Positions 24,911 to 52,166 of a stretch of DNA of 64,000 nt are shown here, in pieces (the stretch's first letter is position 1; each line of letters opens with the position of its first letter). The stretch is from Dawidia cretensis (GTDB taxonomy: Bacteria; Bacteroidota; Bacteroidia; Cytophagales; Cyclobacteriaceae): contig NZ_JAHESE010000025.1 of assembly GCF_018598175.1 (NCBI RefSeq), forward strand, positions 1 through 64,000, in the 5' to 3' direction. Below the pieces are notes generated by a model. The model made no database searches. It saw nothing but the letters and a program-made list of their open reading frames with translations, and was not told the origin of the DNA. The position numbers and the translations under genes were made by a program.

Positions 24911-24936
24911 ACGGGTAAATCTTTAGTTCCTGCCGG

Positions 24937-29778: not shown

Positions 29779-29908
29779 TGCGAAAAAAGATAAACGTTAC
29801 ATCCGCGTAAATTGCTGCCGTTCGAATCGGCTGAACTGCGACCTCCACCGACTCCCGATTCATGCTTATTGATCCCCGGCTCAACAGAGACCCCCGATGA
29901 TCGACGTA

Positions 29909-31936
29909 CTACAACTTCCTGTTAGACAATCCCAAACTATTTGCCAGGTTGGCGAGGTTCAGCAGCGATGGACGATCCTCTTCCGAGCTGTTCTGTTGCA
30001 TTTTCAGAATCAGACTTGAAATGGTCAGGTTTTTAATATCGTTCGTGGTGATATTGTACTTATCGGCAAAGTCGCGGATGCGACCTAACAGATCACCACC
30101 ATTTCCTCCTTCACCCAACAGCGCAGTTTTGATCTGTGTTGCATTTTCACTTTCGTTGATCAACCGATCGAACCCTTTCGCGTTCGAAATCTGGTTGACA
30201 ATATTCTGGAAAAACATCGTTTCACCACCCACAATATCAATCTTGGCAGACTTCAACGCTTCTCCCAATATCGTGGCCTGTGCATCGGCAATATGCTTCT
30301 GAATATCGATCTGCGCGAGCGCGATCTCCTTTTCTTTCGTGAGGAGCAACTTAAACTCTTCATGATCTTTTCCAACAGCATCCAGCTTCTTCATCGCTTC
30401 TGCTTTTTCCTGGATGCCGGCAGCTTCCGCCAGAGCCTTTTCTTTCGTCACTTCAGCTTCCGATAAACCTTCCTTCCGTTTCGCTTCTGCAATTTTCTCA
30501 ATCACCGTCGCGTCAACGATACCTTGTCTTTCTACCGCTTCTGCTTTGGCTATCATAACTTCTGCTTCAGAAAGCCCCCTTGTTGCTTCCTCACGTGCCT
30601 GGGCGTCGGCCAGTATTTTACGTGCTTCTGCCTGTTTCACCGCGGCTTCTTTTTTAGCGTCCGCATCAATCACCAATTGTTTTGCTTTTTCCTCCGCGGC
30701 CTTCTTTTCAGCCTCTGCAGCCTTTACGGTATAGATCAGTTTTTCCTCGGCCTGTTGGCTGGCCTGTGTGATCCCTACTGTCTTATTACGTTCTACCTGA
30801 CGGAAAGCCTCCAGGTCTTTTACCCCCTGTTGCTCTTCCACCACACCTTTTTCAAGGCGCACACGGTCGCGAATGACATCCTGGATGTTCTTACGTTCCA
30901 CTTCCACTGTTTTCTCCTTTTCAATTTGAGCCAGTGTTACGATCTTTTCGCGCTCGGTAGCTTCCAATGCGCGATCCTTTTCTACACGCTCAGTTTCCAC
31001 CGCCTCTGTGCGTTGCTTGTTCTTTTCCGCAATGATGATCTGACGTAACTTATTCTCCTCCTGTACGGCAAGAGATTCCTCCGTTTTGATCCGAACCGTC
31101 TCAGATTTTAGTCTTTCCTCTTCTCTTACCTTAATGATCTCGGCTTGTTCGCGTGAGCGCACATTATCAATTTCTCTACGCTGTTTCTCTTCTTTTTCGG
31201 CCATCTGGCGTTCCAATTCCAGGATGGATTCACGGGCCTCGACGTCTTGCTTCTTGATCACTCTTTCTTCCTCTCGTTTGATCAGATTGGCCTTTATGTT
31301 CTGCTCTGCTGTAAGCTCGGTGATCTTCTTAATACCCTGTGAATCGAGGATGTTTTGTGGGCTGAGAAATTTCATCTCTGTCTGCTCGAGGAAATCAATA
31401 GCGCAGTCGTCGAGGATATAACCGTTCAGGTCGGTTCCTATAATATTCAGGATTTCAGTTCTGAACTCGCGACGCGCTTCATACAACTCGATAAAATCGA
31501 ACTTCTTACCTACCGTTTTTAACGCTTCCGAGAATTTCGCTTCGAAAAGATTGCGAAGTGTTTCCGTATCGCTGGCTCTTTCCGTACCGATAATCTGGGC
31601 TACGTTCAACACATCATCAGCGTTCTTATTTACGCGAACGAAAAATGCCACTTTGATATCAGCACGGATATTGTCTTTACAAATAAGACCATCTTGCTCC
31701 AGGCGGTCGATCTGCAGTTTCTTTACGGAGATATCCATGATCTCCATTTGGTGGAGAATAGGAATGACATACATTCCTTTATTAAAAGCAACGTGACCAC
31801 CCCCCACGCCCGTGCGCACAATTGCTTTTCCTTGCGGAATCTTTTTATAGAAAGTCGCAAAGGCAAAGAGAACAATGAAAATAAAGAATACTATTCCACC
31901 AATAAATATTAAACTAATGCCGCCAAGTAGGTCCAT
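29909..31936 (-). CDS. Flotillin-family SPFH/band-7 protein (YqiK-like)
   Basis: N-terminal TM helix, PHB/SPFH domain and a very long EA-rich coiled coil. Confidence 0.85.
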   Translation of the reverse strand: MDLLGGISLIFIGGIVFFIFIVLFAFATFYKKIPQGKAIVRTGVGGGHVAFNKGMYVIPILHQMEIMDISVKKLQIDRLEQDGLICKDNIRADIKVAFFVRVNKNADDVLNVAQIIGTERASDTETLRNLFEAKFSEALKTVGKKFDFIELYEARREFRTEILNIIGTDLNGYILDDCAIDFLEQTEMKFLSPQNILDSQGIKKITELTAEQNIKANLIKREEERVIKKQDVEARESILELERQMAEKEEKQRREIDNVRSREQAEIIKVREEERLKSETVRIKTEESLAVQEENKLRQIIIAEKNKQRTEAVETERVEKDRALEATEREKIVTLAQIEKEKTVEVERKNIQDVIRDRVRLEKGVVEEQQGVKDLEAFRQVERNKTVGITQASQQAEEKLIYTVKAAEAEKKAAEEKAKQLVIDADAKKEAAVKQAEARKILADAQAREEATRGLSEAEVMIAKAEAVERQGIVDATVIEKIAEAKRKEGLSEAEVTKEKALAEAAGIQEKAEAMKKLDAVGKDHEEFKLLLTKEKEIALAQIDIQKHIADAQATILGEALKSAKIDIVGGETMFFQNIVNQISNAKGFDRLINESENATQIKTALLGEGGNGGDLLGRIRDFADKYNITTNDIKNLTISSLILKMQQNSSEEDRPSLLNLANLANSLGLSNRKL

Positions 31937-31993
31937 AGATAGATTTTAAAGTTAGATTTTTGAGAAAGGTGTTTCTATATAGAGTAATGTCAA

Positions 31994-32665
31994 TCAAACG
32001 ATATTGGAGAGGTTGATCTCTGGGACCACCAGGTAAAATTTTTTATCGGCCGATTCGCCGGCAATCATCACTTCCGAATCATATTCGATCGAGTCGCCTG
32101 TTTTGCTTTGTACGTTGATGCGGATAATATCGTGCTCTATCTTTACTTCCGCTGCTCCGATCTTATCGCCGGAAATGGTACTTCGCATCCGGGCAATCCT
32201 TCCCAGAAGCTCCTGAGGTTCTTCACCATTATACCCCATAGCATGATAAACTTTGACCAACGGCCTGGTGGCATACCGCGTAATGACATACGCGACAAAA
32301 AAAGCAGGTATAAGAACGAATACAGATTTCCAGCCCCAGCTTCCCAAACCCAACGCCACCGATGACGTTAACGTAATGATCCAGGCAAGGAATTTAAAAA
32401 CGGAATATACTACCATGAAGGGCACTTTCCCGATGTTCACAAATTCGAGTGCCTTCTGCAAAAAAGGCTTGTCTGCCACGGCATCATCCGTGTCAGTATC
32501 AACATCCGTATCTACATCTGCCCCGTGCACGGGAAAATCGCTATCAACTCCGGAATCTCCAAACAGATCTCCCGCGACGAATGTAGTTATCCAATAAATA
32601 GCGGTTATTCCCGTGAGAATGGTCATGATGGCATTACTCAACGGATGAAACAGCAGGTCTGTCAT
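31994..32665 (-). CDS. NfeD/YqiJ-like membrane protein (flotillin partner)
   Basis: Two to three TM helices, an acidic D/T-rich linker and a C-terminal OB-fold-like beta region. Sits directly upstream of the flotillin gene, as in yqiJK / nfeD-floT pairs. Confidence 0.5.
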   Translation of the reverse strand: MTDLLFHPLSNAIMTILTGITAIYWITTFVAGDLFGDSGVDSDFPVHGADVDTDVDTDTDDAVADKPFLQKALEFVNIGKVPFMVVYSVFKFLAWIITLTSSVALGLGSWGWKSVFVLIPAFFVAYVITRYATRPLVKVYHAMGYNGEEPQELLGRIARMRSTISGDKIGAAEVKIEHDIIRINVQSKTGDSIEYDSEVMIAGESADKKFYLVVPEINLSNIV

Positions 32666-32696
32666 ACTTGATATCGGTAGGTTGAATGTTAAGATT

Positions 32697-33398
32697 TTAT
32701 GATATCCCTAATTTGTCTTTGATCGCCTGAAGGTCTTTCTCAATAGAGAATGAATCGTTTTTTAACAGGCTGTCCAATTCATCTTTCTTACTATTCTTAT
32801 CACGGGATATTTCACCGTAGGCTTTCGAGAGTGCTTCCTGATCTTCTACCTTTGATTTCATACGCTCGAGCATGCCAATTATTCCGTTGCTATCGACATG
32901 GGCCAGTTGTTTGTTTACTTGTACCGTTGCATTGCTAACGTTCAACCTGGTCTTCAACGTCCGCAACTCTTTTTCCCACTTCTCCATATTCTCCTTCAGA
33001 ATTTCGGCATTGCGCTGCATCTCCCTGGAAGATTGCTGCAACGCAACCGCTTGCAGCCCGAGCTCTTCTGACTCTACAGAATATCTTTTATAGAGCGACA
33101 ACGCTTCACGGGCAAGCTCTTCCGCCTTGCCCAGGTCTACCTGCCCGGACTGTGCTTTTTGCATGATCAATATAGCTTTTTCGGCATAACTTTTCGACTC
33201 CTGCTGGCGGTGAAGCTGATCATTTTCTGTGCGAATAGCCAGGGCCTTTACTTTGGCATAGGCCTCCGTTGCTTCTGCAAGATCTGTGCGCAGCTCACGA
33301 AGGCCCTGCTCCGTCATTTTAATGGGATCCTCCATTTTATCGACAGCGGCGTGAATTTCCGCCTGTCCTATTCTGAAAAGCCTTTTGAAAATATTCAT
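32697..33398 (-). CDS. pspA: PspA/IM30 (Vipp1) family protein
   Basis: N-terminal MNIFKRLFRIGQAEIHAAVDKMEDPIKM aligns with the E. coli PspA start [28 protein letters not shown]. All-helical coiled-coil composition. Confidence 0.8.
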   Translation of the reverse strand: MNIFKRLFRIGQAEIHAAVDKMEDPIKMTEQGLRELRTDLAEATEAYAKVKALAIRTENDQLHRQQESKSYAEKAILIMQKAQSGQVDLGKAEELAREALSLYKRYSVESEELGLQAVALQQSSREMQRNAEILKENMEKWEKELRTLKTRLNVSNATVQVNKQLAHVDSNGIIGMLERMKSKVEDQEALSKAYGEISRDKNSKKDELDSLLKNDSFSIEKDLQAIKDKLGIS

Positions 33399-33439
33399 GA
33401 CTGATAATTTTTAAGTTAAAAACAATCGTTGCGTCAAAA

Positions 33440-33838
33440 TTATAGCTTCGAAAAATCGATGATCTGCTGAGAGAACTCGCTCAATAATAAACCAAGAGAG
33501 TTTAAAGCACTCTCAAATTCATTAAAGTCGATATTCTGAAGCTGCATGGTATAACGGAACAGCACCCGATCGCCTTCTTCGTTAATGACAAAGGCGCCGT
33601 GAATAGTGTCCCTGTTTTTTTGCAGCAGCCTTTTGAACATGTCCATGCTGTCTTCCCGAAAGGAGAAGAGAAACTGCTCCATAATAAGGATAGGAGGCGC
33701 GACGCCAAGGATCAAATTATGGATACCGTCGGATGGATTATCGATCTTGAGAATGCCATGCTGTTCATTCTTATACAGTATTCTGCAATTAAGCCTCCGT
33801 GCGAAATCTTCGATGGTCTCAAAATGGTTCATGAGCAT
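33440..33838 (-). CDS. Hypothetical protein, possibly YbjN-like; first gene of the operon
   Basis: 132-aa soluble protein 41 bp upstream of pspA on the same strand. The YbjN-like call is a weak impression only. Confidence 0.4.
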   Translation of the reverse strand: MLMNHFETIEDFARRLNCRILYKNEQHGILKIDNPSDGIHNLILGVAPPILIMEQFLFSFREDSMDMFKRLLQKNRDTIHGAFVINEEGDRVLFRYTMQLQNIDFNEFESALNSLGLLLSEFSQQIIDFSKL

Positions 33839-33925: not shown

Positions 33926-34612
33926 TTGACAGGAATGACAAAGATTGGCGCCAATATCAAAAAGATCAGAACGACCAAAGGGCTTAGCCAGCAGGCGTTT
34001 GCGGACTTATTTGAATTAACCAGGGGTAACATCTCCTCCTATGAGGAAAACCGGGCGGAGCCGAAAATCGAAACCGTTATACAAATTGCCAATTATTTTA
34101 GCATCCCCCTGCATCAATTTATTACGGAGAATCTCTCCATACACGAAATATTGAAATATAACGGCGATAAGCTGATCGAGGATGAAAATCATATCATAAA
34201 TCTTCAGCTCCGGCAGGTTCCATTCATGAATGATGCCATTTATATGAAATGCTGCTATCAGGAATTGCCATTTAATGATTGGAATAGTTTTCCGAAGCTG
34301 ATCTTGCCGGAGGTAAACAATCACAATATGTTCGCCTTGAGCTTTAATCCCAACATCGCTCGCCACGAATCGCTCCCATCCTATCAAATGAACGACGTAT
34401 TGATTTTCGAAGAGTTAACCCAACAGAATATCCACCTCTGTCAGCACAAAACCGGCCTTTTTACTGCCGAGCGCGAGATCATGATCGGCCAGTATGAAAT
34501 GAAGGACGAAAAAGTTGACCTGGTCTTAAATGATTTCAAGCGGGAGCGATTCGATTTCAAGTCCGCACGGCGATTCTGGAAATTGTTTGCAACCTATCAG
34601 CATGAGAAATAA
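33926..34612 (+). CDS. XRE-family HTH transcriptional regulator, divergent from the pspA operon
   Basis: KIRTTKGLSQQAFADLFELTRGNISSYE Cro/C1-type HTH at the N-terminus. Confidence 0.7.
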   Translation: MTGMTKIGANIKKIRTTKGLSQQAFADLFELTRGNISSYEENRAEPKIETVIQIANYFSIPLHQFITENLSIHEILKYNGDKLIEDENHIINLQLRQVPFMNDAIYMKCCYQELPFNDWNSFPKLILPEVNNHNMFALSFNPNIARHESLPSYQMNDVLIFEELTQQNIHLCQHKTGLFTAEREIMIGQYEMKDEKVDLVLNDFKRERFDFKSARRFWKLFATYQHEK

Positions 34613-35855: not shown

Positions 35856-36125
35856 TCACTGCGAGCTATCTTCAAGAAGGGACATTGCTTTTTCTTCCGT
35901 TACTTCAAAGTTCCATTCGTTTTTCGGCATCACAGCCACCACCGGCCCCCGTTTGCAGTGATCTGTACAACCGGTCTTGATGACCTGTACTTTTCTTCTC
36001 AAACGTTGCTCTTTCACTGTACTCTTCAACCGCTTATAGAGGTGCTTGCTGCCACGTTTTTTGCATTTGCTTCCGCAGCATACATAGAAGACGCAATTCG
36101 GGGTACGAGAAAATTCCTTCGACAC
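35856..36125 (-). CDS. Small thioredoxin-like [2Fe-2S] ferredoxin-family protein
   Basis: Four-Cys pattern CCGSKC ... GCTDHC in an ~89-aa protein. Last gene of the radical SAM cassette. Confidence 0.5.
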   Translation of the reverse strand: MSKEFSRTPNCVFYVCCGSKCKKRGSKHLYKRLKSTVKEQRLRRKVQVIKTGCTDHCKRGPVVAVMPKNEWNFEVTEEKAMSLLEDSSQ

Positions 36126-36184
36126 GTGCCGAAGTTAAGAACTGGGCAATGTCTTCTCCAAATTTTGCATCCGGAAATACGGCT

Positions 36185-37045
36185 TCAACGCCGAGGGTAG
36201 GACCGCGGAATCCGCTCCAACTCGCCTCCTCCAAATACCTCGTCCAGCTTAAGCTCAGGCATGTGCACATAACCGATATGACACCCGCATGTCTGATTCG
36301 AACAATCCCTTGGAAATAGATTGCCCGTGAAATCGCCTTCGTAAATATTACCGATCTTCTCTTTGATAAAGTGACAACGATACATATTTCCATCGCCATC
36401 AAGGCTAAATACACTTTCACCGGTACGGCATGGCCTCCCCAGACTTGCGTGGCGTTTCACATTATAACCAAACAACGGGTCGATCTGTTGAAGAAGATCG
36501 ATGTCTACAGCGTTATAGTAGTAGTCCCTTTGCTTGTACGCATTCACCCAAAGATATATGTCTTGCACCAATTCATTACGGAGGTGGCGAATTTCATCCA
36601 ACGACTCTTTGAATCCGACCACGCCCACACTATACTGCACCCCCAGGGCATCGAGCTCCCGGCATTTGGCGACAAAGTCGGCCCGCGAGATCTGCGTTGG
36701 ATGATAGGTGGTCCACAATGCCACAGTCGACTTGTTTGCCTTCTCCAGCCAACGCGTGCTGCACGTGAGATTCGTTTGGATCGCTACTTTTCGAATATTC
36801 TCCAGATGGCTCAGCTCCAGGATAGCCCGCTGATAGTAATCACGGATTAACGCTTCCCCCCACGGCGTGAACAGAACATGGAACGTATGCTCGGGATGCT
36901 GACGGACCCATGCAATAAACCGGCCGAGCTTGCGCGCGTCATCGGCTAGTTCGGCCCGAGTATTTTTAGTTTTGGCAAACGGACAATAGTCACACCCATA
37001 GTTGCAGCTGGATAACGGACCACGATATAATATCGAGAAATTCAT
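36185..37045 (-). CDS. Radical SAM protein, STM4011-like
   Basis: CNYGCDYC CX3CX2C radical SAM motif right after the start MNFSILYRGP. Start set at the internal Met so it overlaps the upstream gene's stop by 4 nt (ATGA). Confidence 0.65.
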   Translation of the reverse strand: MNFSILYRGPLSSCNYGCDYCPFAKTKNTRAELADDARKLGRFIAWVRQHPEHTFHVLFTPWGEALIRDYYQRAILELSHLENIRKVAIQTNLTCSTRWLEKANKSTVALWTTYHPTQISRADFVAKCRELDALGVQYSVGVVGFKESLDEIRHLRNELVQDIYLWVNAYKQRDYYYNAVDIDLLQQIDPLFGYNVKRHASLGRPCRTGESVFSLDGDGNMYRCHFIKEKIGNIYEGDFTGNLFPRDCSNQTCGCHIGYVHMPELKLDEVFGGGELERIPRSYPRR

Positions 37046-38364
37046 CGCAGCTCGTATTGGTTCATCAAGGCCTGTATGCCGGGTGAATACAGCCACGGAC
37101 CAATGCTGTCTGACAGCTCCATGCCTACCTTCGTAAGCCGCAGCCTGCCCTCGGCATTGACGGCCATCCCAGCATCGAGAAGTTGACAAAGCTCCGGGAA
37201 CTCCGCAAGGGCATTCGCACCAAACCGGCGATTATACCGCGCCAGGTCCAGACCGTCACCATGCAGAATCGATTTAATAACATCGCGTCGCTTCTGCTCG
37301 TCTTCCGGCAGCGATATACCATACCGTACTTGCCCAAACTCATCACTTGTTTCCTGGAGATAGCTGCCGATGATATTCTTCACACCTTTACGACCGACGG
37401 CATACTCCGTGGAATAGTGAACAGATTGTGTATACGACCGTGCGCCGGAACCGAGGCCCACCATGCCGTCTTCCTGGCAACAATAGGTAACAGCATTGAC
37501 AAGGCTCGATGCTGTCTTCTTTCGAAACATGCGCATAGAAACTTGATCATAGCCGTGTTCCAGCAGATAGTCACGCCCCTGGCGATAGCGTTCCAGCCGA
37601 AAATTGTCCCAGCTTAATCCCATCTTATCCAGGCCGGTAAGGGGGCGCACGTAGAGTGGGTAAAGATAAATCTCTTCGGGTTCATATTCCAGTGCGGTCT
37701 GTAAGTTGATCTGCCACGACTCCGGCGTCTGCCCCGCCCCGCCGTAGATCATGTCTATATTCATCGTCTCGAACCCTTCCTTCTTAATAGATGTGAGCGC
37801 CCGGTGTACCTCGTCACGGTGCTGTGGGCGACCAAGAAGTTTAGTCTCGTTGTCGAAAAAACTTTGCACGCCCATACTAATGCGGTCAACGCCTTTGGCG
37901 TGCAGGTAACGCAGCTTATCCGGTGTAATCGTTTTGGGCGAGACTTCAAACGATACAGGTATACGTTGCGTATCCGCGCGCATGGTATTCTCAATAATTG
38001 CAAAAAGCTTTTCCAACTCGTGCTCGTGTAAAAAGCTCGGTGTACCTCCTCCTATGGCCAGTTGAGCATACGTAGCTTCGCCGAGGGCTGCGCTGACGAC
38101 CGTTGCCTGCCGTTCGAGCGACTGAAGGTAGGCAGCAACCTGATCCTGCTCCGGATTAGCCATCGTGAAAAGGTTGCAGAAACCGCAGCGCATTTCGCAA
38201 AACGGTATGTGTACATAGAGAAACAGCGATGATTTATCTTCGCGAGCCCATACATCGCTGAGGGAACGGGCCGGCGAAAACTCGCGATAGGCCGTCTTGT
38301 GCGGATAGGAATACGCATATCCCGCATAAGGATTGGTTGTTATAGTATCTGCTTGAGCGATCAT
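37042..38364 (-). CDS. HemN/HemW-like radical SAM protein (coproporphyrinogen III oxidase family), STM4012-like
   Basis: IPFCEMRCGFCNL CX3CX2C motif, a GGGTPS SAM-binding motif and a HemN C-terminal domain. Confidence 0.8.
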   Translation of the reverse strand: MIAQADTITTNPYAGYAYSYPHKTAYREFSPARSLSDVWAREDKSSLFLYVHIPFCEMRCGFCNLFTMANPEQDQVAAYLQSLERQATVVSAALGEATYAQLAIGGGTPSFLHEHELEKLFAIIENTMRADTQRIPVSFEVSPKTITPDKLRYLHAKGVDRISMGVQSFFDNETKLLGRPQHRDEVHRALTSIKKEGFETMNIDMIYGGAGQTPESWQINLQTALEYEPEEIYLYPLYVRPLTGLDKMGLSWDNFRLERYRQGRDYLLEHGYDQVSMRMFRKKTASSLVNAVTYCCQEDGMVGLGSGARSYTQSVHYSTEYAVGRKGVKNIIGSYLQETSDEFGQVRYGISLPEDEQKRRDVIKSILHGDGLDLARYNRRFGANALAEFPELCQLLDAGMAVNAEGRLRLTKVGMELSDSIGPWLYSPGIQALMNQYELR

Positions 38365-39164
38365 GCACGTTTCTTTAACACTATATGGGCGTATGGCACC
38401 GTCAATACCGACGGGTGTGATAACCGGTGGCCGGTATAGCCATCTTCACCATACGCCGTGCCATGGTCTGCGCACAAGATGGTAAAGGTGTCACCCCGCG
38501 CACGCAAGGCATCGACGAGCACCGGAAGTTGACTGTCTACATAACGGAGCGCGGCGGCATGCGTCGTCAACGAATCCGTTGCCGGGCCGGGCTCGTAAAA
38601 GTAGTTGGGCTGATGGATCGCCGAAATATTGATGAACAGGAAAAATTTTTCATTGGCCGCCAACTGCTTTAGCCACCGCGCCGCAAAGGTAAATTGATTT
38701 CTGGTAGAATTGGGGTCTGTTACACCAAACTGCGGTTCCCAGTAGCTTTCTTCAAACAGCGACGGCAGCACCTGCCCCAGCGGTGTCTTTTTATTAAAAA
38801 AACCAACGCCGCCAATACACGCTGTGCGATAGCCGCCGGCCCGAAAACCCGATACGATGTCGGGTGTGTCAAATACAAAGGTATTGGCTGTTGTGGTCTC
38901 GCTTCCTTCGAAACGCGCGGCAAACAAGCGCTCGTGCCTGCCCGGGCGCGCGGGTGTGGGCAGGAAACCGGCGAAGAAGGCCTGGTGCGCAGCAAAGGTG
39001 AAGGTGCCGGGCGTATGTCGCTCCTCCCACCCGTGTGGTATCCACGCCGCCAGGTGCGGTGTAAGCCCCGCGTGGAACGACTTCACGGCGATATCATAGC
39101 GCAGGCTATCAAAGGTCAAAAACAGCACAGAAGGGTTTCCCGTGAGATCTTTCATGCCTGGCAT
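38361..39164 (-). CDS. Sulfatase-like / alkaline-phosphatase-superfamily hydrolase, STM4013-like
   Basis: LFLTFDSLRYD N-terminal metal-binding start and a C-terminal CADHG motif typical of the alkaline phosphatase/sulfatase fold. ATGA overlap with the downstream gene. Confidence 0.55.
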   Translation of the reverse strand: MPGMKDLTGNPSVLFLTFDSLRYDIAVKSFHAGLTPHLAAWIPHGWEERHTPGTFTFAAHQAFFAGFLPTPARPGRHERLFAARFEGSETTTANTFVFDTPDIVSGFRAGGYRTACIGGVGFFNKKTPLGQVLPSLFEESYWEPQFGVTDPNSTRNQFTFAARWLKQLAANEKFFLFINISAIHQPNYFYEPGPATDSLTTHAAALRYVDSQLPVLVDALRARGDTFTILCADHGTAYGEDGYTGHRLSHPSVLTVPYAHIVLKKRA

Positions 39165-39847
39165 ACGGGTGACAGAGTAAATAATTTATCAATAGATACC
39201 AGGGTCATATCGGGCGGTGTGGACAGCACCGAAGCCGGTAAGGAATGGCTCACCCAGCAGGTCTTCATGCCTACCGCCTGCGCACCGGCCACGTCATTTA
39301 GTGGATGATCTCCAATGAAAAGAATATCATGGGCCGCCAGACCAAGATTGTGCACCACCAGGTCAAAGATCCGGCGTTCGGGTTTTTCATACCCGCATTC
39401 TCCACCGATGTATATAGTATCGGGTAAGAAACTGCCGCTGAGTCCAGCCGCCACCAGTTTGGCCCGCTGTGTTCCGCCCTGACCGTTGGAGATCAGTCCG
39501 GTGCGGTAGGAACGCCGCAGCGATGCCAGGAAGTATACCACAGCCTCGTTGCGCGTGATACACGCCGCGATAGCCGCGGCCAAATCGTTCGCAATATCCC
39601 CCGTTGTACCGGCCAGGCCATACGTACTTTGTAACCCCGAGCAAAACGTCACGCGGTCCAAATGTCCGCTATTGTCCCGCGTCAGGATCTGCGGAATATG
39701 TGTGGCATATTGACTCTCCGGAAGATCGGGCACACGGGCACGCAGCCAACCTGGCAACGCCTGGCCTAACGCTGTATCGCGATCGATCAACGTATTGTCC
39801 AGATCAAAATAGATCGCCTTCACGGTATGAAATAACTCAGGCAGCAT
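39152..39847 (-). CDS. HAD-family hydrolase
   Basis: YFDLDNTL motif I and a GDHPLNDV motif IV. 13-nt overlap with the neighbour. Confidence 0.75.
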   Translation of the reverse strand: MLPELFHTVKAIYFDLDNTLIDRDTALGQALPGWLRARVPDLPESQYATHIPQILTRDNSGHLDRVTFCSGLQSTYGLAGTTGDIANDLAAAIAACITRNEAVVYFLASLRRSYRTGLISNGQGGTQRAKLVAAGLSGSFLPDTIYIGGECGYEKPERRIFDLVVHNLGLAAHDILFIGDHPLNDVAGAQAVGMKTCWVSHSLPASVLSTPPDMTLVSIDKLFTLSPVCQA

Positions 39848-40976
39848 ACATCCATTCTTTTAGCGTGGCCGTATAGGTGTCGTGGCCATGGACATTGGTC
39901 AGTCCGGGCAGCAGGTCGCCAAAGGCGTTGATCTCCAGGACGCGGGGCTGCCCAAAGCCTGCCGGGATCAGCACATCCACCCCCGCATAGAACGCCCCGT
40001 TCAGGCTGCGTACGGCTGCCTCCGCGCAATGCATCGCCTGATCATAGCATTGGCTCCCCAGGCGCTCGCGCAAATTAGATACCGGGCCACGTTGATTCCC
40101 CAGGTGCAGGTTAGTGATCGGACCGGCGCTAAGCCTCGGCAAGGTAAACTGCGCCCGGCCATTGATGACCACCACGCGCAAGTCAAAAATCTTGCCCTGC
40201 AAGGAAGCTTTAGGAATCCATTCCTCCACCACCGCGCCCTCGCGCAGGATAAAATCGACCAGTATTCGAATATCGGTACGATCGGTATAGCGACGTACTT
40301 TCAAAGAATTGTACAATTTCACTTCTCCCGCTACCCGCTCCAGGGCGATTGGCGCAAAGATTTCCTCCCGATGCCCTTGTGCGCGGTAGGCGAGTACACC
40401 CGAAGCAGAAGAGGCATGCGATGGCTTGATAAACAGACGCCGTCCCCGCTCCTCCTGTATCTGCTCCCGCAGGGCATGATAACTGACCAGTTCCGGCAAC
40501 AAACGTGGAATTGGAATCTGCCGATCCTGCAGGTGGCGTTGACAACATCGCTTATCAAACATCAGGCGTATAGCGTCAGGGGTATTCAGCATGCTACAAC
40601 CACTGGTCACGGCAGACTGCTGTATTTGCCTTAACACATGGCCAAAACCCAGGAACCATTGTCTTAAAAAACGTATCCGGCCATGATCGGGACGGAGGTT
40701 GCGCGCATCCACTTCGGAAATGCGTCCGGCATTCCCTGTATGTACAATATCGGCACCGCGTGCGATAATCCGACGCTCTACTTCAAAATTCTCTCCCGGA
40801 GACTCGATGCGCAGCAAAGTATTCGGCCCCAGGGCGTCATCTAGTACATGTTCATTTTCCAGAATGGATGTATATGCAATACGTTGTGGCGCGGCAAGAC
40901 CAAGGCCACGAGCAGCATTGCAAAACAGGTCTGCTCGCCGGTTTTCAGGATTGCACACGACCACGATATTCATCAC
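39837..40976 (-). CDS. ATP-grasp-like protein, STM4014-like
   Basis: Central region (LFIKPSHASSASGVLAYR ... EEWI ... DLRVVVING) resembles ATP-grasp RimK/GshB-type folds. The family name is recalled from NCBI family naming. Confidence 0.5.
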   Translation of the reverse strand: MMNIVVVCNPENRRADLFCNAARGLGLAAPQRIAYTSILENEHVLDDALGPNTLLRIESPGENFEVERRIIARGADIVHTGNAGRISEVDARNLRPDHGRIRFLRQWFLGFGHVLRQIQQSAVTSGCSMLNTPDAIRLMFDKRCCQRHLQDRQIPIPRLLPELVSYHALREQIQEERGRRLFIKPSHASSASGVLAYRAQGHREEIFAPIALERVAGEVKLYNSLKVRRYTDRTDIRILVDFILREGAVVEEWIPKASLQGKIFDLRVVVINGRAQFTLPRLSAGPITNLHLGNQRGPVSNLRERLGSQCYDQAMHCAEAAVRSLNGAFYAGVDVLIPAGFGQPRVLEINAFGDLLPGLTNVHGHDTYTATLKEWMYAA

Positions 40977-40984
40977 AGCAGGTA

Positions 40985-41911
40985 TTACTCGGCTACTTGT
41001 ATATAACGATGGCCTTCATCATCCTGCTGGCGATCCTTCAGATTGACCGCAATCCCAAGTTTCTCCAGCTGGTTGCAAACTTCTTCTGAAATAAAATGAT
41101 AATGAAGATCGAGCAATTTCAGTTTGCCGATGGCAGGGCTTTGCAGCAGCGCTTTGGCACCATCGTCCCCCAGCGTACCCATCGATAAATCGAGCACGTC
41201 CAATTGATTGACGATCGGCGCCGTACTGAGCGCCCTGGCAAGGTCATCTGCGATCACGCTGTCGCGCAGCCCGAGGTAGCGCAGCCTGGTGAAATTAGCG
41301 CCCTGGAATACGGAATCAAAATCGGCTGCCGTGGAACCAAAACCATATTCATCAGAACCGAGCCATAGCTCCAGGTGCTCCAGATTAGGCAGATGGGCGC
41401 TCACCACTTCCGTGACAACGCCGGGCGGTAGGCCACCCGTTTCAATAATCAGATGTCGTAAGCCTGTATGTTGTAGCGATTTTCCCAGACTCAGCTCATT
41501 GCCGCCGCGTACGCGGAAATACTCCAGGGCAGGATAAGCCTTCAACACTGCGCTAAGGTCGCACTGGTTGATCCAGGAGATCTCATATTCTTCATACGTA
41601 ATATCGCCAATAAACAAGGACTTCAATTTGGGAAGCTTCGGCGCCGCGTCGACAAGCGCCTGGGCGATCGCCGACGTATCCCCACCTTCAAAATCGAATG
41701 CACCAATGATGAGCTCTTCCACCTGGCCAGCGTTGGCATCCTGGATGAAGTCACCAATCATGTCGGGGATGTTTTTTCCGTCTTCGAAGCCGTCATAATC
41801 TAACCGCAGGCGGTATACGGTAGATTCCAGGTTGCTAATGCCGGTCTGGGCATCGAAATCCTTCACGGACTTGCCGTTCAGGGTGGTAAGGTTATCAGAA
41901 ATCATAGACAA
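40985..41911 (-). CDS. Leucine-rich-repeat protein, STM4015-like; first gene of the cassette
   Basis: Repeated LxxLxLxxN/D segments: LKSLFIGD, LEHLELWLG, LRYLGLRDS, LDVLDLSMG, LKLLDLHYH. Confidence 0.55.
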   Translation of the reverse strand: MSMISDNLTTLNGKSVKDFDAQTGISNLESTVYRLRLDYDGFEDGKNIPDMIGDFIQDANAGQVEELIIGAFDFEGGDTSAIAQALVDAAPKLPKLKSLFIGDITYEEYEISWINQCDLSAVLKAYPALEYFRVRGGNELSLGKSLQHTGLRHLIIETGGLPPGVVTEVVSAHLPNLEHLELWLGSDEYGFGSTAADFDSVFQGANFTRLRYLGLRDSVIADDLARALSTAPIVNQLDVLDLSMGTLGDDGAKALLQSPAIGKLKLLDLHYHFISEEVCNQLEKLGIAVNLKDRQQDDEGHRYIQVAE

Positions 41912-42037: not shown

Positions 42038-42413
42038 CTAGGCGGGCTCAAACAATTCAATCTTGTTCCCCTCTATATCCAGAATGTGAACAAACTTCCC
42101 ATAGTCATACGTTTCTACCGTATCCAGGATCATCACACCTTCTTTTTTTAATTCTTCTACGAGTGCTTCCAGGTTCTCAACCCGGTAATTAATCATAAAA
42201 TCTCCGGACGAGGGCTCAAAGTATTTGGTCTTGTCTGAAAAAGGGCTCCATAGCGTATATCCTTCCTTTGTAGAATCCGCCTCCTCCCGCCAATCAAACT
42301 TCGTTCCGTATTGTTCAGCACCAAAACCGAGATGAGTTTGATACCATTGTTTCATTTTCTCCGGATCTTTACATTTGAAGAAAAATGCCCCCGATGCCTG
42401 TTACTCGTTTCAT
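42038..42413 (-). pseudogene. VOC (glyoxalase/bleomycin-resistance) family gene disrupted by a frameshift in an A5 homopolymer at 42381-42385
   Basis: Upstream frame encodes MKRVTGIGGIFF, a typical VOC N-terminus. It is followed by a stop, and the annotated 105-aa ORF continues in another frame with KDPEKMKQWY. Removing one A restores a single ~125-aa VOC protein. Confidence 0.6.
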
Positions 42414-42598
42414 TTTTTAATTGTTCTTTAGTGTTGTTAGCCAAAATTGAATTGAATGCGAAACCAAAACCGAAATGATGTCGCCAAACAAATTCACTGC
42501 ATTTCGATCCGGTCTTACCATTGATTCCTTAAATTTAAACGTTCTAAAACAATATCCAACGGAACCTAAACATCCCCAAACGAACAAATCCAAACAGA

Positions 42599-43525
42599 TT
42601 GAAACCTCCCATGAACACCAGGCTTCAACGATTCGCCCAGCTGGTTTTTTACGGTAATTATTTTTACGGAGTTTGTGCCGTCTCCTTAATTCTGGAAACT
42701 TCAGCACTCCTAAAAATTCCGTTTCAAGGATCCCTGTTCTATGCGATCGCGTTTGTCGCCACCGTGCTTTTTTATAATTATCCATACGCCCGGAATTACT
42801 CCTCCCCCAGCACAAATCCTCGAACAGCATGGTATATCGCCAATCATAGTCTGATCGTTAAAACACAAATAGCACTGACTCTGCTTTTGATTATCCTTAT
42901 TGCCTCGGTGCTGATCAATTACTTCCACGAATTTGAGAACATGAGTAATCTGCAATGGCTTCTATTTCTCATTTTTCCCATGATCGGAGCAATGTATTAT
43001 GGTGCCAACTTCTTTTCCGCCCGGTATAATCTTCGAAGCATCGGTTGGCTCAAACCTTTTCTGATCGGGTTTGTGTGGGCGGGGGTAACAACAATCTACC
43101 CGTTCGAATACCACGATGTACTAAATTCCACGCACCATCCGGTAACAATTTTAGAAATATTGTTATTCCTGAAGAATCTCATGTTTATATCGATGGTTGC
43201 CATCTTGTTCGACATTAAAGACTACGCATCCGATAGCAGCAGCCATTTGAACACAATGGTGGTAAAAATCGGGTTACGAAAAACAATCCTCTTCGTTGTG
43301 TTTCCATTAACGATCCTGGGCGTGCTTACCTTTCTATCCTATGCCCTTGTTCATCAGTTCAGCCTCCTCAAAATGATCCTGATTATGATCCCGTTTTTCC
43401 TGTTGATCATCGTGGCACGATCGTTAAAACGAAGAAGGTCGCTGATGTATTACCTCGTGGCGATTGATGGCCTTTTGGTTGTAAAAGCCGCTTTTGGAAT
43501 TCTTGCCGCGATGGTTACTTCATAA
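42599..43525 (+). CDS. Polytopic membrane protein, possibly a UbiA-like prenyltransferase
   Basis: About 8 TM helices and an aspartate-rich FDIKDYASD loop that loosely resembles UbiA NDxxDxxxD. Confidence 0.4.
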   Translation: MKPPMNTRLQRFAQLVFYGNYFYGVCAVSLILETSALLKIPFQGSLFYAIAFVATVLFYNYPYARNYSSPSTNPRTAWYIANHSLIVKTQIALTLLLIILIASVLINYFHEFENMSNLQWLLFLIFPMIGAMYYGANFFSARYNLRSIGWLKPFLIGFVWAGVTTIYPFEYHDVLNSTHHPVTILEILLFLKNLMFISMVAILFDIKDYASDSSSHLNTMVVKIGLRKTILFVVFPLTILGVLTFLSYALVHQFSLLKMILIMIPFFLLIIVARSLKRRRSLMYYLVAIDGLLVVKAAFGILAAMVTS

Positions 43526-43844: not shown

Positions 43845-44278
43845 CTGATTCAACGTCCCGCCTAAACACATCTCGCGAGCTCAGAAAAACGACCGAATCG
43901 TCCCCAAGCCCCCCGGGAATCTCTCCTGGAAGTGAAATCTTTCCTGGTTCTTTCACATGTAAAGGGATAATCGCGTCTCGAAGCCAAAAATAGACGTAAC
44001 ACATTGTCAATCAGCATATATAAGACATTAAACGGAAAAATCGTCATCCTTGCGTTACTTCTACTCTAAATCGCCGCAAAATCCAAAACAACAAATTGAC
44101 AATCAATTCATTAACAGGAAAAATAAGCACGCTATTAGGGACTTCGCATGACTTGTTGCACTATAGTGTGTACCGTGTCAAACGACCTCAACGACCCTCC
44201 GAACAAAGCCAGAACAAGAACGGAAATGATCCTTTTTTTTTATTTTGTCTCCAAAACCATCGAGTAAGGACCCAAAGA

Positions 44279-46843
44279 ATGACAGAGCAAAGAGGCGAAG
44301 GAAGTTTCTTTCGGAATTTTAAAGCTATGCTTTCACTGATAAAATCATACTGCTATATATTTCTGGTATTTGGTTTTATGCCACTGCAAGCCACCTCGCT
44401 GGGCGGCTTAAAGTTTCATGGCAGTGAACAATCGATCGATCAGCGCACGTCCTACAATGTATTTGGCGATAAGGCGGTCGAATTTTCAGACAACATGATC
44501 ATTGAATTTGATCTGTCACTGTACACCACCACCCGCATCGGATACATCATCCGGATCAAAAACAATGAAAGCAACCGAATCTATAACCTGTTCTACGACG
44601 CGCAGGGCGACAACCTCGTCTTCAAATTCAATGAAGAAGGCAAATATAGCCTGATCGTTGCCACCCTCAACGAAGAAGAATTGCTAAACCTCCCCTGGTT
44701 TAAAATGAAAATCGCATTCGACCTCAAAAGCGATTCCATCTACCTGACGATCCATAACCAAACGTTCAGCGCCGCCAACGAGCTGCCCGATACCTATCAT
44801 CCTACGATTCTCTTCGGCAAAAGCGATCACATTATTGATGTGCCGTCCTTTGCCATTAAAGACCTTTCCGTCGGCGATAAAGAACGGTACTTCTTTCCAC
44901 TAAAAGAAAGCAAAGGCGACGTGGTGCACGACGCCAATGGCAAAGTCTTTGGCCAGGTCTCTAACCCGGAATGGTTGATGAACGATGCCTACCACTGGCG
45001 CTATAAAACCGGCTTTAAATCAAAATCAGTCGCGGGCGCCAACTATAATCCGGAAGAGAAAGAAATATACTACTTCAACCGCGACTCCCTGTGGCTCTAC
45101 AACGTGCGCTCCGGAGAAACGAACATACAGGTCTTTGGAGAAAAATGCCCGGTGGAGCTGGTCCTGGGAACCAACTTTATCGACACGAAGAAAAACAGGC
45201 TATATTCCTACGAAACCTACTATGCGCCTCCCCGCGACAATTACACCGGCCCCACGGTAGCCAGCCTCGACCTGACTACCTACCAATGGACTGCCGAAGA
45301 TTCCGGCCAGCTCATTAGCCCACTCCACCATCACGGCGCGTACTTCGACTCTACTACCGCGCAATACACCATCTTCGGAGGCTTTGGCAAGATGCATTAC
45401 AGCAATACATTCTTTGCCTACGATCTGAACAAACAGGCGTGGGACACCCTGGACGCCTTTTCGGGAGACTTTTTATCGCCGCGTTATTTTTCCTCTGTCG
45501 GATACCTCAAAAAGAACAACTCCATTTACGTCTTTGGCGGCATGGGCAACGACTCCGGCGAACAGACTGTCGGAAGAAAATATTATTACGACCTCTATAA
45601 AATAGACCTGACCACCCGCCGCGTCTCCAGGCTTTGGGAGATTCCCTGGGAACAGGATAATGTCGTGCCGGTACGAGGCATGGTTGTACTCGACGACTCC
45701 TCCTTTTATACCCTCTGCTATCCTGAACATTTTTCTGAATCGTTCCTCAGGCTCTATCAATTCTCATTAAAAGACGGAAGCTATAAAATACTGGGCGACT
45801 CTATCCCGATATATTCTGACAAGATCACAACAAACGCCAACCTTTATTACGATGGCAGCCTGAACAACCTGTATGCGGTCGTCCAGGAATTTGACGACGA
45901 TATCTCTTCCGACCTGAAGATATATTCCCTGGCGTTCCCTCCTATTACGGCCGACGAGCTGGCCAGCTATTCACGCGAAAAAAATAATTACGCAGTCATT
46001 CTTGCGCTTGTGTCATTATTAGCCGTTGGCGGCGCCTATGTTCTCTTCAAAAAGCAGCAATCCAGGCTCAGCAATACGGAGGATGAAACCCAAAATCTAT
46101 ACATTGATACGGACAAGCCCGAACCGGTAACGACGCAGCCGAACGCTATTTATCTCTTTGGAGAATTCACCGTACGCGACCGAAACAATCGTGACATCAC
46201 CTATATGTTCAGCGCGCAACTGAAGCAGATCTTCTGTCTTATACTACAGTACACTATAACTGAAGACGGCATCGCGTCACAGCGACTCAGCAACATACTC
46301 TGGCCTGACAAGCCGGCGGATAAAGTAAAGAACTCCCGCGGCGTTTCCATCAATCACTTACGCAAAGCGCTAAGCGAATTGGATGGAATAGAGCTCCTCT
46401 ATGACAAAGGCTTTTTCAAAATAGAGCAAACCGGAAGCTTCTACTGCGACTACACGCGATGCATCGAAATCATCTCCGCCAACGAAGTGGACACACGCCG
46501 TGACGAGCTGATTGAAATCATTTCCCGTGGCAAGTTCCTGCAACTTTCCGATCACGCCTTATATGATTCCTTTAAAGAAGAAGTAGAAAAGAAACTGGAA
46601 CCGGTACTATCACTGGAAATGGAAAAGAGCTTCGACGCCGAGCTTTATCTCACAACGATCGCTTTTGCCGAGGCCATCACCAATATCGATCCGTTAAATG
46701 ACGCCGCGCTGACTTTCCAGATCAAAGCGATGCAACGATTAAAAATGAACGATGAAGCGCGAATCCGGTACCAGGCTTTTGTGATCGACTATAAAAAGGC
46801 GATGGGGAATGATTATCCCCACCCCTTTAAAAGCCTAACGTAA
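44279..46843 (+). CDS. One-component transmembrane transcriptional regulator: extracytoplasmic LamG-like + Kelch/beta-propeller sensor, single TM helix, cytoplasmic OmpR/SARP-type winged-helix DNA-binding domain
   Basis: Signal-like MLSLIKSYCYIFLVFGFMPLQA; LamG-like block; repeated Kelch-like Y..GG...W blades; TM helix AVILALVSLLAVGGAYVLF. C-terminal IYLFGEFTVRDRNNRDI...LKQIFCLILQY...LWPD matches trans_reg_C-type winged helices. A Bacteroidota -7 box TATTTTG at 44241 supports the 44279 start; the ORF track begins at 44096. Confidence 0.6.
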   Translation: MTEQRGEGSFFRNFKAMLSLIKSYCYIFLVFGFMPLQATSLGGLKFHGSEQSIDQRTSYNVFGDKAVEFSDNMIIEFDLSLYTTTRIGYIIRIKNNESNRIYNLFYDAQGDNLVFKFNEEGKYSLIVATLNEEELLNLPWFKMKIAFDLKSDSIYLTIHNQTFSAANELPDTYHPTILFGKSDHIIDVPSFAIKDLSVGDKERYFFPLKESKGDVVHDANGKVFGQVSNPEWLMNDAYHWRYKTGFKSKSVAGANYNPEEKEIYYFNRDSLWLYNVRSGETNIQVFGEKCPVELVLGTNFIDTKKNRLYSYETYYAPPRDNYTGPTVASLDLTTYQWTAEDSGQLISPLHHHGAYFDSTTAQYTIFGGFGKMHYSNTFFAYDLNKQAWDTLDAFSGDFLSPRYFSSVGYLKKNNSIYVFGGMGNDSGEQTVGRKYYYDLYKIDLTTRRVSRLWEIPWEQDNVVPVRGMVVLDDSSFYTLCYPEHFSESFLRLYQFSLKDGSYKILGDSIPIYSDKITTNANLYYDGSLNNLYAVVQEFDDDISSDLKIYSLAFPPITADELASYSREKNNYAVILALVSLLAVGGAYVLFKKQQSRLSNTEDETQNLYIDTDKPEPVTTQPNAIYLFGEFTVRDRNNRDITYMFSAQLKQIFCLILQYTITEDGIASQRLSNILWPDKPADKVKNSRGVSINHLRKALSELDGIELLYDKGFFKIEQTGSFYCDYTRCIEIISANEVDTRRDELIEIISRGKFLQLSDHALYDSFKEEVEKKLEPVLSLEMEKSFDAELYLTTIAFAEAITNIDPLNDAALTFQIKAMQRLKMNDEARIRYQAFVIDYKKAMGNDYPHPFKSLT

Positions 46844-52131: not shown

Positions 52132-52166
52132 ATATAATTCAGATTATAACTCGTAAGTCTTTAACA

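Follow-up and report, generated by a model that had tools for sequence, protein, structure and literature searches.

What could a bacterium be doing with a leucine-rich repeat (LRR) protein whose gene stands beside those of an ATP-grasp ligase, two phosphate-handling enzymes and two radical S-adenosylmethionine (radical SAM) enzymes? This question is raised by a cassette in Dawidia cretensis, on contig NZ_JAHESE010000025.1, of which we analysed positions 1 to 64,000 (this whole 64-kb stretch is called "the window" below). All seven open reading frames (ORFs) of the cassette are on the minus strand, within positions 35856-41911, and five of them belong to the families named STM4011 to STM4015. 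Our main new observation, read from the predicted proteins, is the conserved tail of the LRR protein (STM4015), which ends in a free C-terminal Glu, and we think with moderate confidence that the enzymes of the cassette modify this tail or use it as a carrier.

The five families were assigned with NCBIfam models, all of which score above their curated cut-offs: NF038076 for STM4015 (327.6 bits against 275, model positions 3-290 of 290), NF038074 for STM4014 (368.5 against 175), NF038075 for STM4013 (396.4 against 250, with a full-length match), NF006067 for STM4012 (586.7 against 380, with C56-X3-C60-X2-C63 kept) and NF038073 for STM4011 (399.6 against 200, with C14, C18 and C21 invariant). 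A preliminary description of this stretch had put forward the correspondence to STM4011-STM4015 from NCBI family naming, and these scores bear it out. Its domain calls (two CX3CX2C radical SAM proteins, a sulfatase/alkaline-phosphatase fold, ATP-grasp, haloacid dehalogenase (HAD) and LRR) also agree with Pfam and NCBIfam, the Pfam LRR match of the STM4015 protein being weak. The correspondence is already encoded in public annotation, and the ATP-grasp protein of the window is 100% identical to the NCBI entry 'STM4014 family protein [Fulvivirgaceae bacterium PWU5]'.

Do these proteins then form a pathway that has already been described? The preliminary description had called the cluster functionally uncharacterised, and we agree, since no model of a known pathway reached its cut-off, no PADLOC system was matched and no functional literature was found. 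The models for HemN, HemW, ChuW, anSME (the anaerobic sulfatase-maturating enzyme), RimK, LysX, MptN and CofF all score far below their cut-offs with the cassette proteins; together with the Thr that STM4013 carries without a formylglycine motif, and the lack of the fourth Cys of HemN in STM4012, this leads us to reject heme metabolism, sulfatase maturation, RimK- and LysX-type reactions and F420/methanopterin glutamylation as the pathway. In the literature the STM401x names occur in tables of sigma-54 chromatin immunoprecipitation, expression and positive-selection studies, none of them on function, and under the topics of ATP-grasp, radical SAM, LRR, WGR, C-terminal glutamate and carrier proteins we found no published description of the system, although an earlier prediction in the ATP-grasp amidoligase literature is possible. 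By its sequence the locus counts among the ordinary representatives of a family that already has a name, and it falls outside every characterised system that we considered.

The C-terminal tail and the recurrence of the cassette

For the comparative set, an STM4013 alignment was used to scan genomes, one for each species, and at least 590 of at least 600 stretches were confirmed; the best 80 loci were retained, 61 of which have enough flanking DNA to be informative, from more than 12 phyla. Within these 80 loci, 113 of the 117 STM4015-family ORFs end in Glu, against 4% of the other ORFs of at least 200 aa, and R-[YF]-x-x-x-x-E-COOH is found in 111 of the 117. In the consensus, a flexible acidic linker (29% Asp/Glu) precedes R-Y-[VIC]-[AS]-[VL]-[SAG]-E, and the window protein, which ends in ...DRQQDDEGHRYIQVAE before its stop codon, has both the acidic linker and the free C-terminal Glu. 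A HMMER search of 1.84 billion cluster representatives gave 2,045 STM4015 relatives at E <= 1e-10; among the best 150 of these, chosen at no more than 50% mutual identity, 143 end in Glu and 125 match the same motif (type I), most exceptions being visibly truncated. The enterobacterial/Firmicute branch, which contains the Salmonella protein that gave the family its name, has another tail (type II), [YW]-x-x-[PA]-[ML]-x-T-E-COOH, as in ...DGDIYMNAMYTE of Salmonella STM4015; here 115 of 120 end in Glu, 95 of them in T-E, and the five exceptions are fragments. Since two clade-specific motifs both end in Glu, the terminal Glu is the sole universal feature of the tail.

The tail is the best-conserved segment of a protein that is otherwise divergent, and in multidomain and tandem-LRR members it is found solely at the extreme C-terminus. 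The proteins are acidic (family median pI 4.64, and 4.51 in the window). At the N-terminus they carry different modules: WGR domains in Burkholderiales, Myxococcota, Planctomycetota and Peptococcaceae, HEAT-like repeats in Nostoc, and a Lon-N-like segment in one representative. In Nostocales, three to seven STM4015 paralogues of about 410-430 aa share one set of enzymes per cluster, and their tails differ at positions -5, -4 and -2. Such arrays were seen in loci L018, L019, L029, L030, L034, L042, L048, L053 and L056, with tails such as RYCSVAE, RYYSVWE, RYCALYE and RYSALHE.

What the conserved residues allow already narrows the chemistry. Phe replaces Tyr in 18 of the 125 type-I tails, which argues against any chemistry requiring a phenol; with the different type-II motif, it makes Tyr-centred reactions (phosphorylation, or a quinone like pyrroloquinoline quinone, PQQ) unlikely. 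We also reject a side-chain macrocyclisation of the graspetide type, because no Ser, Thr or Lys partner is conserved across both tail types.

The genes that accompany this tail are constant too. All five core genes are present in 52 of the 61 informative loci (counts for single genes are given in Table 1), so that the co-occurrence across phyla for which the preliminary description had called is found. The order of the five core genes in the window, LRR, ATP-grasp, alkaline-phosphatase fold, STM4012 and STM4011, is identical in Salmonella and in E. coli LF82. Such a recurrence of five families in constant order is far beyond chance. The best 80 loci span Burkholderiales, Gammaproteobacteria, Cyanobacteria, Bacteroidota, Chloroflexota, Planctomycetota and Verrucomicrobiota, as well as Myxococcota, Desulfobacterales, Acidobacteriota, Streptomyces, Armatimonadota, Fibrobacteres and one Clostridia metagenome-assembled genome (MAG); 15 plasmid or megaplasmid records add Deinococcus, Paenibacillus and Methylobacterium, and STM4013 homologues form 6,373 clusters at 90% identity (E <= 1e-5).

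Within this order the cassette consists of two sub-modules. The STM4013-STM4012-STM4011 order is kept in 64 of 70 loci and the LRR gene is directly upstream of the ATP-grasp gene in 56 of 67 cases, and in seven loci the LRR/ATP-grasp pair has relocated as a unit, there lying opposite in strand to the alkaline-phosphatase/radical SAM unit. The sub-modules are genomically separable, as STM4013 homologues of about 60% identity stand alone in three loci (L021, L026 and L063) and with radical SAM genes only in four others. An unbiased clustering of all ORFs in the loci gave no further widely shared family, and no protease, exporter or regulator.

The enzymes and the reactions they may carry out

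The ATP-grasp protein STM4014 may be taken first. Its AlphaFold2 model is confident (pLDDT 92.7), and in two independent structure searches the first or nearly the first ranks go to ArgX-LysW, LysX and RimK (RimK-RpsF among the entries); Foldseek puts ArgX-LysW, LysX, RimK and PsnB, a peptide ligase, first. Since other ATP-grasp enzymes follow at a modest distance, we take this fold evidence as supportive and not decisive. The ATP- and Mg-binding residues are invariant across the family, and sequence searches of solved structures with STM4014 gave marginal matches only. The ligases ranked first in Foldseek work by activating the carboxylate of a Glu or Asp in a protein or peptide; for ArgX/LysX and for RimK the residue is a C-terminal Glu (PMC9303977, PMC10375531): the ligases of amino-group carrier proteins activate the gamma-carboxylate of the C-terminal Glu (PMC9303977), and RimK extends the C-terminus of S6 (PMC10375531). 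An apparent fusion of the ATP-grasp protein to a peptidase M3 (P0183) looks like an artefact of read-through from an upstream gene and was set aside.

The two radical SAM enzymes are of different kinds. Beside the CX3CX2C motif (C14/C18/C21), STM4011 keeps five more Cys without exception (C206, C224, which lies in a G-x4-C context, C248, C253 and C255). Its remote similarities, weak but recurrent, are mainly with SPASM/twitch enzymes that act on peptides or proteins: anSME (in 12 of 16 members), PapB (in 10 of 16) and the C-terminus of SkfB. The SPASM domain model reaches 15.1 against a cut-off of 27, over its first 35 positions only, and searches of solved structures with STM4011, as a single sequence and as a profile, gave marginal matches only. 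The nearest solved structure of STM4012 is E. coli HemN (1olt, E 2.5e-37, residues 13-385, nearly the full length); CX3CX2C, GGGTP and the equivalents of HemN Y56, H58, E145 and R184 are kept, whereas Leu replaces the fourth Cys of HemN (CxxxCxxCxC becoming CxxxCxxCxL). The hemN model TIGR00538 gives 156.7 against a cut-off of 324.95, and both HemW (154.3) and ChuW are below their own cut-offs.

The remaining enzymes concern phosphate. The nucleophile position of STM4013 is an invariant Thr in P-G-[ST]-F-T-[FYW]-A-[AS]-H, and the formylglycine motif Cys/Ser-x-Pro-x-Arg is absent; a type I sulfatase with its anaerobic maturase is rejected on this ground and on that of the anSME model, which scores 18.1 against 349.45. 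The protein is strongly conserved, with about 60% identity between phyla, and its profile found marginal matches only among solved structures. The HAD protein of the window matches Pfam HAD_2 (58.2 against 23.8) and Hydrolase (56.4 against 26.4), with F-D-L-D-N-T at residues 14-19, and its best NCBIfam matches, CTE7 and YjjG-like, are both below cut-off (YjjG 75 against 159.9), which gives no equivalog assignment. Elsewhere the phosphatase is of another type: Salmonella and E. coli LF82 have a Cof-type HAD-IIB gene that overlaps the stop codon of STM4011, and in a Peptococcaceae MAG (GCA_009778595.1, L087 11334-13202; also L088) STM4011 is fused to a HAD-IIB domain in a protein of 622 aa (NF038073 273 bits, plus TIGR00099). 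The gene order in Peptococcaceae is ATP-grasp, WGR-LRR, alkaline-phosphatase fold, STM4012 and the STM4011-HAD fusion. A HAD phosphatase has thus joined the cassette in at least three separate ways (HAD-IA insertion, HAD-IIB overlap, HAD-IIB fusion). This makes it very likely that a phosphate ester is an intermediate or a substrate. STM4013 is invariant, and it and the HAD enzyme suggest that the attached building block or an intermediate is phosphorylated.

How could these activities be combined? We propose that STM4014 would phosphorylate a carboxylate of the terminal Glu of STM4015 and join to it an amine, possibly a phosphorylated one, and that STM4011 (twitch/SPASM-like) and STM4012 (HemN-like) would then tailor the tail or the attached group by radical chemistry. 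One chemically natural option for this step would be an oxidative decarboxylation of the HemN type on the propionate side chain of Glu; methylation, or a C-C cross-link to the conserved aromatic residue, would be alternatives. STM4013, with its Thr nucleophile, and the HAD protein would transfer or remove the phosphoester, and in Dawidia cretensis the small [2Fe-2S] ferredoxin probably gives electrons to the radical SAM clusters. The product most likely stays on the LRR protein, where it would tune the binding function of the latter, and is not released, given that no amidase or exporter is conserved, that the N-terminal modules vary and that paralogues occur in arrays; for these reasons a lasting modification of the protein seems to us likelier than the role of a mere carrier. 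The preliminary description had hinted at the synthesis or modification of a phosphorylated or peptidyl small molecule; the peptidyl half of this fits better, and the free small molecule fits less well, as the STM4015 tail looks like a substrate or an acceptor.

In its fullest form our proposal is tentative: a modification not known so far, in which a phosphorylated block is attached to the C-terminal Glu of an LRR protein, remodelled by radical chemistry and finished by the alkaline-phosphatase-fold and HAD enzymes, could provide a prosthetic group or a warhead, borne by the protein itself, to cytoplasmic LRR/WGR binding proteins in more than 12 phyla, including Salmonella and adherent-invasive E. 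coli. That it is a new kind of protein modification has a real chance of being true, if a less than even one. Several facts weigh against a modification of the tail. Each catalytic step is our inference; the usual substrates of alkaline-phosphatase-fold and HAD enzymes are small molecules or lipids, and those of HemN relatives mostly tetrapyrroles or small molecules. In four loci (L022, L025, L033 and L072) STM4013 and both radical SAM genes are present, but LRR and ATP-grasp genes are both absent within 10 kb, and two others (L068 and L078) have an LRR gene without the ATP-grasp gene.

A rival reading is a free small-molecule pathway, one that makes, for example, a phosphorylated cofactor- or nucleoside-like compound, in which the substrates of the four enzymes would be soluble and STM4015 would be only a regulator, scaffold or sensor with its tail as a docking or pseudo-substrate motif. 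The alkaline-phosphatase-fold, HAD and HemN-like enzymes typically handle small molecules, the 60% identity of STM4013 across phyla is what one expects with a fixed small substrate, some loci do without LRR and ATP-grasp genes nearby, and MptN and CofF, which glutamylate cofactors, are among the relatives of the ATP-grasp protein. We nevertheless consider this pathway rather unlikely, because it leaves unexplained the retention of a free C-terminal Glu, at about 95%, in three independent samples and in two tail motifs, the tight linkage of the LRR and ATP-grasp genes, and the fact that the closest folds are ligases of protein C-termini.

Could the tail itself be the product? In a pathway like those of RiPPs (peptides made by the ribosome and modified after translation) or of peptide-derived cofactors (mycofactocin, PQQ and borosins may be compared), the tail would be a core carried on an LRR leader, to be cross-linked or methylated, cut off and released. 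The likeness of STM4011 to SPASM/twitch peptide maturases and the conserved aromatic residue five to seven positions before the terminal Glu would suit this idea; so would the Nostocales arrays, which recall RiPP clusters with several precursors and a single enzyme set. Large precursors with a C-terminal core do exist (borosins), and mycofactocin also has a C-terminal core. On the other hand, a protease, an exporter, a RiPP recognition element (RRE) domain and a short precursor are all missing from what is co-conserved, the tail hardly varies between phyla where most RiPP cores do, the occurrence of Phe for Tyr speaks against phenol chemistry of the PQQ type, and LRR bodies with variable N-terminal modules of their own suggest functional end products. 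We regard this pathway as unlikely. A short precursor-peptide ORF nearby, which the preliminary description had proposed to look for, was found neither in the window (where the intergenic spaces are of 59 and about 126 nt) nor in the other loci: a scan of all loci for the tail motif returned the LRR genes and, beyond them, only a few decayed fragments and chance matches. Short frames that end in the tail motif (for example ...SRYYALYE) occur at L041 7753-7872, L075 8681-8734, L018 13393-13431, L030 4354-4401 and L036 3597-3644, and are most likely what is left of STM4015 paralogues after decay or a frameshift, not true precursors.

A further idea concerns the role more than the chemistry, with which it would be compatible: a conflict or immunity system whose diversified LRR proteins act as sensors while the enzymes make or arm an effector. 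We think this improbable, although the paralogue arrays (up to six per locus) and the variable WGR and HEAT-like modules would fit it, as would the patchy distribution suggestive of horizontal gene transfer (158 of the 5,426 complete genomes of E. coli, LF82 among them, and the 15 plasmid or megaplasmid records), the many sampled loci from taxa with large genomes and complex development (Nostocales, Myxococcota, Streptomyces, Chloroflexota and Planctomycetota) and the appearance of STM4015 among the candidates of a positive-selection scan on the Typhi branch (q = 0.07). Against it, no nuclease, protease or pore-forming effector is co-conserved, and the enterobacterial site is fixed and chromosomal, beside typA, with no defence island; in E. 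coli the cassette is always chromosomal and single-copy. Nor is there support from PADLOC-DB v2, which gave marginal matches only (the best, E 4.5e-6, to PDC-M51A over part of the radical SAM core), or from the viral contigs scanned, none of which encodes the cassette; on these two grounds a defence system that is already known is rejected too.

Why should this matter? The cassette is common, with copies in Bacteroidota, Cyanobacteria, Chloroflexota, Actinomycetota, Myxococcota, Planctomycetota, Firmicutes, Deinococcus and Proteobacteria, Salmonella enterica among them, and is yet annotated merely as 'STM401x family protein'. The Glu tail and the LysX/RimK-like ligase turn its unknown function into a specific hypothesis that mass spectrometry can test in tractable hosts, and directly so, as S. 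Typhimurium and the E. coli genomes counted above carry the cassette. If the hypothesis is true, the carrier or acceptor chemistry of a C-terminal Glu, as in LysW and S6, extends to large binding proteins, and new reactions of radical SAM and alkaline-phosphatase-fold enzymes on proteins would be revealed.

Gene layout and neighbours

The features of the cassette are collected in Table 1, with starts taken from a start-codon analysis.

Table 1. Features of the cassette in window coordinates, with the number of informative loci in which the corresponding gene is present
Feature	Coordinates	Strand	Remarks	Informative loci
STM4015-family LRR protein	41905..40985	-	306 aa, pI 4.51; NF038076	55/61
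STM4015 C-terminal tail and stop codon	40985..41008	-	RYIQVAE and stop; family hallmark, proposed modification site	
STM4014-family ATP-grasp ligase	40973..39837	-	378 aa from ATG 40973; alternative start GTG 40976	54/61
HAD-IA phosphatase	39847..39152	-	231 aa; optional cassette member	15/61 (slot as in the window)
STM4013/SEN3800-family alkaline-phosphatase-superfamily enzyme	39164..38361	-	267 aa; Thr at nucleophile position	
STM4012-family HemN-like radical SAM enzyme	38364..37042	-	440 aa	59/61
STM4011-family radical SAM enzyme	37045..36185	-	286 aa; Cys-rich C-terminal auxiliary-cluster region	58/61
Thioredoxin-like [2Fe-2S] ferredoxin ORF	36125..35856	-	89 aa; local accessory after a 59-nt gap	

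The STM4015 start is backed by close relatives that align from residue 1-2, and for STM4011 the maximal ORF extends to 37189, the family model beginning at the ATG of the table. From the LRR gene to STM4011 the junctions are an 8-nt gap (11 nt with ATG 40973) and then overlaps of 11, 13, 4 and 4 nt, whereas the earliest ferredoxin start, GTG 36125, comes 59 nt after the end of STM4011; six genes are thus tightly coupled, in translation too, and the seventh is merely adjacent. The preliminary description had all seven tightly overlapping, which is right for the first five junctions and wrong for that of the ferredoxin. It had also treated both the HAD and ferredoxin genes as additions to the cassette: the ferredoxin is indeed local to this organism, but the HAD gene is a recurrent optional member, found in the same slot in 15 of the 61 informative loci, and other clades have taken up other HADs.

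The ferredoxin ORF matches Pfam 2Fe-2S_thioredx (PF01257) at 27.3 against a gathering threshold of 24.8, with Cys ligands at C16-X4-C21 and C53-X3-C57. On the identical metagenome contig L001 it was not called as a gene, no product with its sequence is on record, and no ferredoxin gene lies beside the cassette in the 80 other loci. A hairpin with a T-run overlaps its GTG start (36134-36117); terminator-like sites are overall not above shuffled-sequence expectation. The same is true of the promoter and terminator scans, and an Rfam search of the window gave zero matches.

The downstream end of the cassette is 15 nt from a convergent GH43 gene. Just upstream of the LRR gene is an ORF of the glyoxalase/VOC family (42038-42355, minus strand), and weak glyoxalase-like ORFs (44-48 bits) follow STM4011 in three Streptomyces loci (L054 13032-13385, L079 12987-13394 and L064 15294-15743), which may be a coincidence. 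Beyond it, two ORFs overlap on opposite strands, one at 42417-42830 (minus) without any match and one at 42599-43525 (plus) with a sub-threshold UbiA match (20 against 34.2 bits). An operon-like run adjoins the cassette at 24119-33838 (minus), with a divergent XRE-type helix-turn-helix (HTH) gene at 33926-34612 (plus); it encodes a YbjN/CesT_Tir_1-like protein, PspA/IM30, proteins of 223 and 675 aa without Pfam or NCBIfam match, a 1613-aa DUF3686+DUF7902+AAA ATPase and a 263-aa unknown protein. The run has the same gene order on contig L001, and looks like a separate uncharacterised system associated with PspA, not co-conserved with the STM401x cassette. Further out, the surroundings are typical of Bacteroidota (21095-24037 and 44096-46843 on the plus strand, 50071-55406 on the minus strand), with a GxGYxYP-family putative glycoside hydrolase bearing CBM6 and a type IX secretion system (T9SS) sorting domain, a 915-aa Kelch-repeat protein and a SusC/SusD-like pair. 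In the 80 loci the ferredoxin, GH43, HTH, YbjN-like, PspA and DUF3686-AAA genes are not co-conserved with the cassette, and the PspA/YbjN/DUF3686-AAA, GH43, HTH and glyoxalase-like neighbours are rejected as members of it on this basis.

Other lineages have neighbours of their own. The enterobacterial cassette adjoins typA and glnA (L082 5038-10629 in Salmonella Senftenberg and L084 4001-9537 in E. coli LF82); searched against E. coli genomes by megablast, the window cassette had no match, and it took the Salmonella sequence to find the E. coli copies. A DUF6745 protein of about 330 aa and an ORF of about 100 aa without family match adjoin the cassette in nine Chloroflexota/Planctomycetota loci (L013, L014, L015, L024, L027, L032, L043, L059 and L081), and an Hsp70-like and GrpE-like gene pair lies beside it in eight or nine Nostocales loci, including L038 and not L056.

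Comparison with known systems

How far do the known systems resemble this cassette? Taking the enzymes singly, STM4013 may be set beside the Thr-nucleophile clade of the sulfatase/alkaline phosphatase superfamily (LtaS/LtaP, EptA/EptC/MCR-1, PhoK and phosphonate monoester hydrolase), of which it is a minimal soluble core of 267 aa, without the membrane anchor, signal peptide and cap domains. STM4012 aligns nearly over its full length with HemN and keeps its key residues; it differs from HemN, HemW and the class C methyltransferases (ChuW, NocN) in scoring below the HemN, HemW and ChuW cut-offs and in a conserved neighbourhood without any tetrapyrrole context, and it lacks the fourth Cys of HemN, a trait common to HemW and the class C methyltransferases.

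With the SPASM maturases (anSME, PapB, SkfB, MftC and PqqE) STM4011 shares CX3CX2C and a Cys-rich C-terminus, which aligns weakly with the start of SPASM and with the twitch region of SkfB. Among these enzymes the target of MftC is a C-terminal residue, and PqqE joins a Glu to a Tyr. The matches of STM4011 are, however, far below the family cut-offs, its 286 aa are too short for an RRE and a full SPASM domain, it has five auxiliary Cys and not seven, and no short precursor, chaperone or protease accompanies it. The features by which a RiPP cluster is recognised (a short precursor, an RRE or chaperone, a full SPASM domain, a protease or exporter) were not found with the cassette.

Taken as a whole, the cassette is closest to the systems that work on a C-terminal Glu. 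LysW is a zinc-ribbon protein of about 54 aa, whereas the candidate acceptor here is an LRR protein (300-450 aa in the family, 306 aa in the window) with variable N-terminal modules and another tail motif. What is common to LysW/LysX/ArgX, to Vzb22 in DADH biosynthesis and to the present case is an acidic protein that presents a C-terminal Glu, with further enzymes of the cluster that act, or here would act, on the tethered group (PMC9303977). In place of a small zinc-ribbon carrier ending in EDWGE stands the LRR protein, and no kinase, reductase, aminotransferase or releasing hydrolase of the LysZ/LysY/LysJ/LysK type is co-conserved with the cassette, whose partners are instead the two radical SAM enzymes and the alkaline-phosphatase-fold enzyme; the LysX model gives 17 bits against 275.6 with STM4014, though the LysX and ArgX folds rank high.

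With RimK and S6 (RpsF) the likeness lies in an ATP-grasp ligase whose target is, or here would be, the C-terminal Glu in the acidic tail of a protein, and in a high structural match (PMC10375531). RimK, however, works alone, without radical SAM or phosphatase partners, whereas the candidate substrate of STM4014 is encoded beside the ligase, and the RimK family model TIGR00768 scores 19.2 with STM4014 against a cut-off of 143.4. We think that the closest working analogy for the STM401x cassette would thus be a ligation to a C-terminal Glu comparable to those of LysW/LysX and S6/RimK, to which radical SAM and alkaline-phosphatase-fold partners and a large LRR acceptor would have been added.

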